A stretch of 64,000 nucleotides of DNA from positions 1 through 64,000 of IMG/VR virus record IMGVR_UViG_3300031963_000063, one strand, 5' to 3'. The stretch comes from a virus. Shown here piece by piece: positions 26,084 through 26,943 of this stretch. The notes under the pieces are model-generated. The model saw only the letters and a program-made list of their open reading frames with translations. It did not search any database and had not been told where the DNA came from. Positions within the stretch are counted from its first letter, which is position 1; each line of letters starts with the position of its first letter. A program made the position numbers and the translations under genes.

Positions 26084-26170
26084 TTACTTATAAATCCACT
26101 GAATGTACGTTGATAACAATATCGTCATTAACGCAATTGCAGCAGTTGAAGAAATTAGAAATTGTACCAT
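26084..26170 (-). CDS. 28-aa hydrophobic single-transmembrane peptide
   Basis: MVQFLISSTAAIALMTILLSTYIQWIYK; TGATG overlap with the upstream ORF. Confidence 0.55.
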   Translation of the reverse strand: MVQFLISSTAAIALMTILLSTYIQWIYK

Positions 26171-26268
26171 CACTTTGCTCCAACTAGTTGTGCTAGTTGT
26201 GCTTGATGACGACGATCTTCTTTTTGTTTTTGTTCTTTAATAAGTTGTAGGAAGTTAAGTTTTTTCAC
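26170..26268 (-). CDS. 32-aa basic helical peptide
   Basis: GTG start overlapping the upstream stop, preceded by GGAGG; MKKLNFLQLIKEQKQKEDRRHQAQLAQLVGAK. Confidence 0.65.
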   Translation of the reverse strand: MKKLNFLQLIKEQKQKEDRRHQAQLAQLVGAK

Positions 26269-26423
26269 TTCTGCACCTCCGCATTTCTGCAAGGACGGTA
26301 TGCTACTCCACGATATGTGTTTTGTGGATGAGCAGGAGCGTGTGTTTGGTTATACCATGACACATACTCTTTCTTTGCATTTTCGGTGTCGTACTGACAA
26401 CCTCTATAAACGACTTTAGACAT
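26265..26423 (-). CDS. DUF4278-like peptide (52 aa)
   Basis: MSKVVYRGCQYD...NTYRGVAY with two YRGxxY motifs; SD AAGGAG at 26432-26437. Confidence 0.82.
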   Translation of the reverse strand: MSKVVYRGCQYDTENAKKEYVSWYNQTHAPAHPQNTYRGVAYRPCRNAEVQK

Positions 26424-26455: not shown

Positions 26456-26624
26456 CGTTCCTTCAGTCGGCTTTTGCGTCTATGGGACAAGTTTTTGGAG
26501 AGACTTGTTTAATCTCCCAAATTAAATCATTCTTTGCTTGTTTGGGAATATCTACTGTGTAAATTCTCCCAACCATTAATTGTGCCTGTAAGCAAGTTAA
26601 AATGATTGCTTCCATAGATGAACG
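26456..26624 (-). ncRNA. glnA-type glutamine riboswitch-like aptamer 2 with expanded P2 loop
   Basis: CGTTCA-TCTATGG...[insert]...CCATAGA-CGCAAAAGCCGACTGAAG-GAACG; P1 is CGTTC/GAACG and P2 is 7 bp. Confidence 0.72.
26463..26615 (-). CDS. 50-aa two-cysteine protein nested in aptamer 2
   Basis: Manual translation MEAIILTCLQAQLMVGRIYTVDIPKQAKNDLIWEIKQVSPKTCPIDAKAD. Confidence 0.65.
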   Translation of the reverse strand: MEAIILTCLQAQLMVGRIYTVDIPKQAKNDLIWEIKQVSPKTCPIDAKAD

Positions 26625-26627
26625 TTC

Positions 26628-26880
26628 CGTTCCGAGTCGGCTTACTTCCGTCCTATTTAATTTTTAGCACTTTATAATTACGTCTTTTCGCAATTCTAAT
26701 AGCAATCGGTCTTCAATCTTTTGGTGAACAACATCGTCGTTTTTAACGATGTCCATTAGTTCCCACGCTGCATTACAACTTATTGTGACTGGATATTCAG
26801 TTTTGATAAGTTGTGGTGAAGCAACAGAAAGAAGTGGAACCCATGCTAAAAGCAAAAGTGCTTTAGTCATAGGATGAACG
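26628..26880 (-). ncRNA. glnA-type glutamine riboswitch-like aptamer 1 with expanded P2 loop
   Basis: CGTTCA-TCCTAT...[~210 nt]...ATAGGA-CGGAAGTAAGCCGACTCG-GAACG; contains the GACGGAAGTA junction/E-loop motif. Confidence 0.72.
26664..26870 (-). CDS. 68-aa two-cysteine protein with signal-peptide-like N-terminus, nested in aptamer 1
   Basis: ORF track MTKALLLLAWVPLLSVAS...ISCNAAWELMD...LLLELRKDVIIKC. Confidence 0.65.
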   Translation of the reverse strand: MTKALLLLAWVPLLSVASPQLIKTEYPVTISCNAAWELMDIVKNDDVVHQKIEDRLLLELRKDVIIKC

Positions 26881-26890
26881 TTAGGGGATT

Positions 26891-26943
26891 ATTATACCCC
26901 TATTCATAGTATATAGGTAGTTTTGTGTGTATTTCCTGATACA
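26891..26943 (-). promoter_or_regulatory. NtcA-type box plus -10 element
   Basis: TGTA-TCAGGAAA-TACA (GTA-N8-TAC at 26929-26942); TATAAT at 26891-26896, 10 nt before aptamer 1. Confidence 0.72.

Follow-up and report, generated by a model that had tools for sequence, protein, structure and literature searches.

Candidate two-cysteine miniprotein genes nested in the tandem glutamine-riboswitch-like aptamers of a T4-like cyanophage

Type 1 glutamine riboswitches (glnA RNA, Rfam family RF01739) occur singly or in tandem upstream of DUF4278/IF17-like genes (PMC2864571, PMC6212724). DUF4278 genes are tied to glutamine riboswitches and, in the case of gifB of Synechocystis, glutamine is an ON signal that enhances the synthesis of the downstream gene (PMC6212724). 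The window analysed here is a stretch of 64,000 nucleotides (positions 1 to 64,000 of the IMG/VR virus record IMGVR_UViG_3300031963_000063) from a T4-like cyanophage, which carries ThyX, glutaredoxin and tRNAs and has its relatives among the Kyanoviridae. Between positions 26,456 and 26,880, it holds the halves of two such aptamers in tandem, each split by a small open reading frame (ORF1 and ORF2) and followed by a DUF4278-like gene (ORF3), all three on the minus strand. The flanks correspond to RF01739 and the downstream gene is of the DUF4278-like kind, whereas the first hairpin (P2) differs, as its loop counts 4 nt in the consensus and here encloses a whole gene, with 150-207 nt.

ORFs housed in structured RNAs are known from the homing-endonuclease genes in group I intron loops and from the tag ORF of tmRNA. 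As in these systems, a coding frame lies in a peripheral loop while the RNA core must still fold, but here the frame is lodged in a small ligand-sensing aptamer, the closing helix takes in the start codon, and the proteins encoded are no endonucleases. In the literature, no paper was found describing genes inside glutamine-riboswitch hairpins.

The best explanation, to which we give an even chance, is that ORF1 and ORF2 are real genes of a cyanophage-only class of P2-nested two-cysteine hairpin proteins, at most very distant relatives rather than recent duplicates, each tied to its slot and gained or lost independently of the other. The class would consist of miniproteins of about 50-70 amino acids (aa) in the P2 loop of glutamine-riboswitch aptamers. 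A sensor known otherwise as a short leader of IF17-like genes would then enclose a conserved protein gene in each of its hairpins.

The aptamer halves and the frames they enclose

The elements of the tandem are the following.

26628..26880, minus strand: aptamer 1, glutamine (glnA type 1)-like, with the P1 5' strand CGTTCA at 26880-26875
26874-26869 and 26656-26651, minus strand: P2 arms of aptamer 1, UCCUAU (holding the AU of the ORF1 start codon) and AUAGGA
26650-26628, minus strand: core and P1 3' strand of aptamer 1, CGGAAGUAAGCCGACUCGGAACG
26870..26664, minus strand: ORF1 (P0001), 68 aa, signal-like N-terminus, C32 and C68, nested in the P2 loop of aptamer 1
26456..26624, minus strand: aptamer 2, glutamine-like, with CGTTCA at 26624-26619
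26618-26612 and 26485-26479, minus strand: P2 arms of aptamer 2, UCUAUGG (holding the ORF2 start codon) and CCAUAGA
26478-26456, minus strand: core and P1 3' strand of aptamer 2, CGCAAAAGCCGACUGAAGGAACG
26615..26463, minus strand: ORF2 (P0002), 50 aa, C8 and C43, phrog_504 family, nested in the P2 loop of aptamer 2

An earlier note on this DNA had described both ORFs and their peptides with exact coordinates, and the flanking CGTTCA...GAACG halves to which it drew attention are real, being the two halves of glutamine-riboswitch aptamers. Along the minus strand, CGTTCA, UCCU, the start codon and body of ORF1, AUAGGA and CGGAAGUAAGCCGACUCGGAACG are followed by CGTTCA, UCU, the start of ORF2, ORF2 running into CCAUAGA-CGCAAAAGCCGACUGAAGGAACG, a strong ribosome-binding site (AAGGAG) and ORF3. 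Both start codons are equally placed in the P2 5' arm (CGUUCA-UCCU-AUG vs CGUUCA-UCU-AUG), and the 3' half of aptamer 2 supplies the last six codons and the TGA stop (26465-26463) of ORF2.

The flanks show P1 (CGUUC/GAACG), the first hairpin, the junction CGGAAGU and the 3' GGAACG in the order of a type 1 glutamine riboswitch. Aptamer 1 keeps CGGAAGUA, instead of which aptamer 2 carries CGCAAAAG, a variant also present in the compact aptamer-2 copies of S-CREM1 and S-PM2. S-CREM1 has the same leader without ORFs, annotated as a glnA riboswitch, and in DSL-LC02 the first aptamer is compact and the second holds an ORF2 homolog. Compact homologs match RF01739 over its full length, with 35.6 bits for aptamer 1 of DSL-LC02 and 33.5 bits for aptamer 2 of S-CREM1 (gathering threshold, 35 bits). 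As these copies match end to end, they place the ORFs in the terminal loop of the first hairpin of the model. The window itself gives no Rfam glutamine match, either at gathering or at E<=10, and the glnA model run over the whole virus record gives weak matches elsewhere only; Rfam misses these aptamers because each loop holds 150-207 nt.

The loci compared here and below were picked by sequence patterns from among the matches listed. In 231 units with a long loop, P2 closes around the nested gene with at least 5 contiguous pairs in 208, and its arms vary in a compensating manner (UCCUAU/AUAGGA, UCUCAU/AUGGGA and UUACUAUCAU/AUGAUAGUAA among many), some units having up to 14 pairs that link the first codons to the last ones. 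The expectation of the earlier note that homologs would be flanked by aptamer halves is borne out, since both halves surround 55 of the 59 ORF1 loci and 47 of the 49 ORF2 loci (~95% of homologs).

As far as sequence can tell, ORF1 and ORF2 are genuine coding genes. Their metagenomic homologs form 251 (ORF1) and 106 (ORF2) clusters, and the ratio of nonsynonymous to synonymous substitution rates (dN/dS) is 0.30 for ORF1 (64 distinct DNA copies) and 0.25 for ORF2 (78 distinct DNA copies), with the third codon position being the most variable in both. Length changes are in whole codons only, giving 66-69 aa in the ORF1 family and 50-54 aa in the ORF2 family. Invariant cysteines (Cys) stand at C32 and C68 in the former and at C8 and C43 in the latter, where an IDAKAD tail is also fixed. 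As the Cys codons of both families differ at their third position, selection acts on the amino acid. In a few contigs (L028, L068, L079, L080, L408), both genes were found to be kept after the loss of aptamer halves.

Groups, fold and kinship of the nested proteins

BLAST sorts the 221 distinct proteins encoded by the 231 units into four groups.

phrog_504 type: aptamer 2 slot, 130 distinct proteins, including ORF2
ORF1 family: aptamer 1 slot, 68 distinct proteins, no PHROG match
phrog_6471: aptamer 1 slot, 16 distinct proteins, marine
Leader-bearing group: aptamer 2 slot, 7 distinct proteins, signal-like N-terminus

Exactly two Cys occur in each of the 221 proteins, spaced by 31-41 residues (mode 35-36). 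The first of them (Cys1) usually follows S or T in the phrog_504, ORF1 and phrog_6471 groups and mostly N, R or K in the small leader-bearing group. The helical hairpin proposed in the earlier note agrees with AlphaFold2 models built with family alignments. A helix-turn-helix is predicted for ORF1 (helices 32-44 and 50-67; mean predicted local distance difference test score, pLDDT, a modest 65), preceded by a hydrophobic N-terminus of low confidence, and for ORF2 (helices 2-20 and 25-38; pLDDT 84; predicted template modelling score, pTM, 0.63). In these models, Cys1, which ends a hydrophobic-[S/T]-C motif, opens helix 1 in ORF1 and is internal to it in ORF2, and the second Cys (Cys2) lies just after helix 2. 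A bridge closing the hairpin is therefore plausible, and our best guess is that the Cys pair would staple or switch it, as an intramolecular disulfide or a thiol switch; a metal site formed in a dimer is the alternative. The Cys pair offers a direct handle on function.

CHCH twin-CX9C proteins and plant alpha-hairpinins, with two Cys per helix (four in total) in CX9C or CX3C motifs, are likewise helix-turn-helix proteins with Cys near helix ends that could bridge the helices. The nested proteins differ from them by having one Cys per side (two in total), and they show no sequence match or significant fold match. NblA, CP12 and the IF7/IF17 domains are small nitrogen- or redox-related proteins of cyanobacteria; the absence of any Pfam match at E<=10 for ORF1 or ORF2 speaks against them as candidates.

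The hydrophobic leader is found in ORF1 only, as the earlier note had it, with a maximum 11-residue Kyte-Doolittle value of 2.55 vs 1.72 in ORF2. By inspection, it comprises an n-region with K3, a 13-residue hydrophobic core (A4-V16) and small residues at -3/-1, with a c-region S-V-A|S, or S-V-S|T in homologs. It looks like a Sec signal, for which a hydrophobic region of 7-15 residues is expected, or may be a membrane anchor, so that ORF1 may be exported or membrane-anchored via this leader and ORF2 cytosolic. The [S/T]-C motif was also considered as the mark of a lipoprotein. A lipobox of the PROSITE PS51257 type has its Cys at positions 15-35, no charge in the six residues before the box and A, G or S at -1. 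ORF1 has K and E in the six residues before T-I-S-C, and in ORF2 the Cys is already at position 8, preceded by T, and the N-terminus is acidic; this reading was rejected for both.

ORF2 is assigned to the phrog_504 family, the profile of which matches 52 of 54 members of the ORF2 family (best E 2.5e-6), the window ORF2 itself giving E 0.041. This family is the T4-like cyanophage gene cluster GC 430, with PSSM4_169.3 of P-SSM4 and PCMG_00321 of P-SSM2 as examples. Both marine isolates carry nested ORFs, and the phrog_504 profile finds the positional homologs at 5.6e-16 in P-SSM4 and 4e-8 in P-SSM2. These members share with ORF2 the aptamer-2 loop, the two Cys and an aptamer-encoded D-A-K/E-A/V-D tail, whereas ORF1 lacks any match to the family (0 of 50 ORF1 family members). 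As ORF2 family members occur in most sequenced T4-like cyanophages, their role may matter for phages managing nitrogen-limited hosts.

The counterpart in the first slot is phrog_6471 (T4-GC 429), to which gp169.2 of P-SSM4 (PSSM4_169.2) matches at 1.2e-29. It resembles ORF1 in its place in the aptamer-1 P2 loop, its UCCUAU/AUAGGA arms, its 66-68 aa, its hydrophobic N-terminus and its Cys spacing of 36-37, but it has no sequence or profile similarity to the ORF1 family, and its N-terminus is without the positive n-region of ORF1. No match to its profile was obtained at E<=10 for P0001, P0110 or P0116, nor for any of 50 ORF1 family members. ORF1 is thus read as a member not of phrog_6471 but of a tight aptamer-1 family of freshwater or estuarine phages that no PHROG covers. 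Marine phrog_6471 ORFs (e.g. L290, L306, L328) often end in I-G-R-K and a stop encoded by the AUAGGACGCAAGUAA of the aptamer. As these ends and the D-A-K-A-D tail of ORF2 are aptamer-encoded, the RNA core would dictate C-termini.

A tblastn search with ORF1 against 50,697 phage records gave no relative. The ORF2 profile matched 47 of 1.84 billion representatives, every one of them ORF2-like, with no ORF1-like protein and no named family among them; one match of 409 aa is a repeat artefact, and the divergent ORF2-like proteins align too variably to seed a locus search. The ESM Atlas returned only clusters that look like those of ORF1 and ORF2 themselves. In 185,579 cellular species genomes, no ORF2 relative was found, and the phage-type aptamer junction occurs in 5 contigs only. 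Four belong to metagenome-assembled genomes of non-cyanobacterial taxa and the fifth, of 189,106 bp, to a single-cell Prochlorococcus and is equal in bp to an IMG/VR viral contig; all five are read as mis-binned or phage DNA.

Kinship between the groups was assessed by comparing their profiles with hhalign, with RNA-encoded tails trimmed and column permutations (60 for each pair) as the null. The profiles are shallow, and the following values are to be read with that in mind.

Leader-bearing group vs phrog_504: probability 89%, P 2.5e-6, z 11, 0/60 permutations as high
phrog_6471 vs phrog_504: probability 49%, P 1.7e-4, z 5.9 (5.0 with Cys masked), 0/60
ORF1 family vs phrog_504: probability 10.8%, P 0.0028, z 3.7, 0/60, over 18 columns around Cys1
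ORF1 family vs the other three merged: probability 22-24%, P ~1e-3, z 3.5-4.9, 0/60, over 33-39 columns

Since phrog_6471 is linked to phrog_504, a family of the first slot and one of the second can be distant relatives. The 39-column full-length alignment of the ORF1 family with the merged groups spans Cys1 to Cys2 in the register given in the earlier note, and the HMM-HMM (hidden Markov model) comparison returns a weak Cys-to-Cys match (probability 22%) for the broad profile. In addition, at least 8 small cyanophage proteins are common to the top 50 BFVD hits of both structural models, these hits being non-significant.

Several results weigh against reading ORF1 and ORF2 as genes of a single class. 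Neither has a Shine-Dalgarno sequence, as read from the sequence, and Foldseek finds no significant match for either model in BFVD or the PDB; the fold is generic, the PDB giving generic helical hairpins only (E>=4). BLASTP of ORF1 against ORF2 yields no alignment at E<=100, and hhalign of the two narrow families gives a probability of 0.24%, in a register unlike that of the earlier alignment. For these two families alone, the condition under which the earlier note would give up its claim, a lack of profile similarity, holds. That alignment reproduces as written (6 identities in 39 columns; Cys spacing of 36 for C32-C68 vs 35 for C8-C43) but, when the interior is shuffled between anchored Cys, its global score is at chance beyond the Cys pair (z=1.37, p=0.10). 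With Cys masked, the match of the ORF1 family to the merged groups falls to a probability of 1.7% (P 0.03, z 2.1, 3/60). The ORF1 family gives no signal against phrog_6471, although both share a slot (0.4%, P 0.17, z 0.2, 22/60), or against the leader-bearing group (0.3%, P 0.21, z 0.2, 24/60).

The paralogy of the two miniproteins, which the earlier note had proposed, is therefore not shown by sequence, whereas their two Cys and predicted hairpins stand. A distant homology, resting mainly on the Cys pair, a short motif in helix 1 and the shared context, is about a coin toss. The strongest rival, somewhat less probable than that but a serious one, holds that ORF1 and ORF2 are unrelated and that their likeness is convergent: each would have entered its loop separately and then met the same constraints, namely the limited length that a loop can accommodate, the pairing of their ends as P2 and a common need for a Cys pair. 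The failure of the pairwise comparisons and the loss of signal on masking speak for it, as do the lack of a PHROG for ORF1 where the ORF2 family matches phrog_504, the independent presence or absence of the two genes (see below) and the tightness of the ORF1 family, which is without intermediates. On the other hand, exactly two Cys at near-equal spacing, with S/T usually before Cys1 in three of four groups, are much to ask of convergence. Moreover, the broad profile aligns ORF1 from Cys to Cys in the expected register with a score that no permutation reaches, and phrog_6471, the other aptamer-1 family, keeps its link to phrog_504 even when the Cys are masked.

Slot occupancy, origin of the tandem and the inserts as RNA

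Slot occupancy was determined in a freshwater sample of 100 non-redundant IMG/VR loci among the matches listed, chosen only by the 3' half of aptamer 2, of which 83 could be parsed. Both aptamers are compact in 38 of them, whereas 24 have ORF2 only, 10 have ORF1 only and 11 have both, with ~9 expected under independence. In these 83 loci, long loops contain an ORF1 homolog whenever they belong to aptamer 1 and an ORF2 homolog whenever they belong to aptamer 2. Each gene thus keeps to its own slot but is acquired or lost without regard to the other. A marine-type sample shows loops of two sizes, <=20 nt and 125-213 nt, with aptamer 2 usually occupied.

A recent duplication of aptamer plus gene as a unit is not favoured by these counts, because the two genes are distributed independently of each other and many tandem aptamers carry no ORF. 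The scenario to which the earlier note points, in which an ancestral single aptamer with a nested two-Cys gene was duplicated in tandem and compact aptamers are later deletions, is unlikely as well, but it has arguments. The two aptamers are clearly homologous and place their start codons at the same point of the P2 5' arm, both slots hold nested ORFs in marine and freshwater phages, and only 10 of the 189 isolate records with the tandem match it uninterrupted, i.e. with both aptamers compact. A locus with ORF1 in an apparently single aptamer also exists. Against this, P2 counts 5 bp and its loop 4 nt in the Rfam consensus, tandem glnA RNAs have been reported without mention of nested genes (PMC2864571), the doubly compact state is the commonest one in the freshwater sample, and the similarity of ORF1 to ORF2 is marginal; in addition, a transfer of ORFs between homologous aptamers by recombination would give the same picture.

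The single-aptamer locus (L282) carries its ORF1 homolog in an apparent single aptamer in which a junction of the aptamer-1 type is joined to a 3' end of the aptamer-2 type. Other contigs depart from the tandem in different ways. In L028, ORF1 is directly followed by ORF2, the 3' half of aptamer 1 and the 5' half of aptamer 2 being gone. L068, L079 and L080 keep ORF1 with a mutated CAGTTCA, a terminator standing where the 3' half would be, and L408 has an ORF2-like gene without the 3' half of the aptamer. Another kind of insert is found in L183 (3531-4175, minus strand) and in L219, where a 214-aa ORF stands between two compact aptamers and continues across aptamer 2 up to the TGA that is also the stop of ORF2. 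It matches phrog_10820 (HNH endonuclease, 7.6e-9) and phrog_314 (homing endonuclease, 2.3e-6), and L175 retains just the two ends of this insert.

In its broadest form, the class could have a single source: all the aptamer-nested genes of cyanomyoviruses, in the four groups, would derive from one two-Cys hairpin gene that arose or was captured in a P2 loop and then spread between slots, with glutamine-gated thiol-switch miniproteins as products, some cytosolic and some exported, by which the phage would couple the nitrogen state of its host to redox-sensitive targets, in counter-phase to ORF3. We regard this extension as doubtful. Whether one gene or more fills both slots would tell if the layout arose by a single spreading invention or by repeated capture.

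That the inserts are no genes but structured RNA expansions of P2, open by chance, is highly improbable: the missing Shine-Dalgarno sequences, the near absence of synonymous change in ORF1 codons 35-46 and 53-62 (26730-26765 and 26680-26715, minus strand) and the inner helices that RNAalifold predicts in ORF1, including an 8-bp hairpin at codons 40-47, would fit it, but dN/dS of 0.25-0.30, the variable third codon position, length changes by whole codons, frames open in 221 distinct variants, Cys kept while their codons vary and genes retained where the aptamer is lost all contradict it.

An RNA-level role inside ORF1 is nevertheless hinted at by the near-absent synonymous variation together with the predicted helices, although no covariation backs these helices, as their positions never vary. 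RNAalifold also pairs codons 10-12 with 36-38 (GUUCC/GGAAC) and ties codons 4-5 to the last codons (GCACUU/AAGUGC). A number of these sequences are similar to the P1 strands of the aptamer.

Proposed regulation and neighbouring elements

Two more elements of the locus surround the tandem.

26423..26265, minus strand: ORF3 (P0003), 52 aa, DUF4278/IF17-like, conventional downstream gene of the riboswitch, with the Shine-Dalgarno sequence AAGGAG at 26437-26432
26896-26891 (within 26884-26900), minus strand: TATAAT box, promoter-like, in a loop closed by a GGGG/CCCC stem, immediately before aptamer 1

ORF3 scores 22.5 bits against DUF4278 (Pfam PF14105; cut-off 25.3, E 1.5e-4) and matches phrog_5049 at 1e-11. 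As the start codons of the nested genes lie in the P2 5' arm and ORF2 ends inside the aptamer core, translation and glutamine-bound folding should exclude each other. A ribosome on a nested gene would keep its aptamer unfolded, and a folded, glutamine-bound aptamer would hide the start codon. Provided that glutamine is an ON signal for ORF3 as it is for gifB, expression of the nested genes would be favoured when glutamine is scarce, so that the miniproteins would be made mainly under that condition and the IF17-like ORF3 at high glutamine.

The TATAAT element at 26884-26900 is not called by a strict promoter scan. S-PM2 and L183 have comparable TATAAT boxes, likewise enclosed in a stem, ahead of the aptamer, and we take this arrangement to resemble the promoter-early stem-loops of T4-type phages. 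Used as a promoter, it would leave ORF1 a leader of only ~15-18 nt, made of the P1 strand.

Two more small frames lie between ORF3 and a terminator at 26077-26055 (26084-26292, minus strand). One counts 40 aa with a TTG start and the other encodes a hydrophobic peptide of 29 aa (26173..26084); they may share a small operon with ORF3, as p191 and p192 of S-PM2 suggest by comparison.

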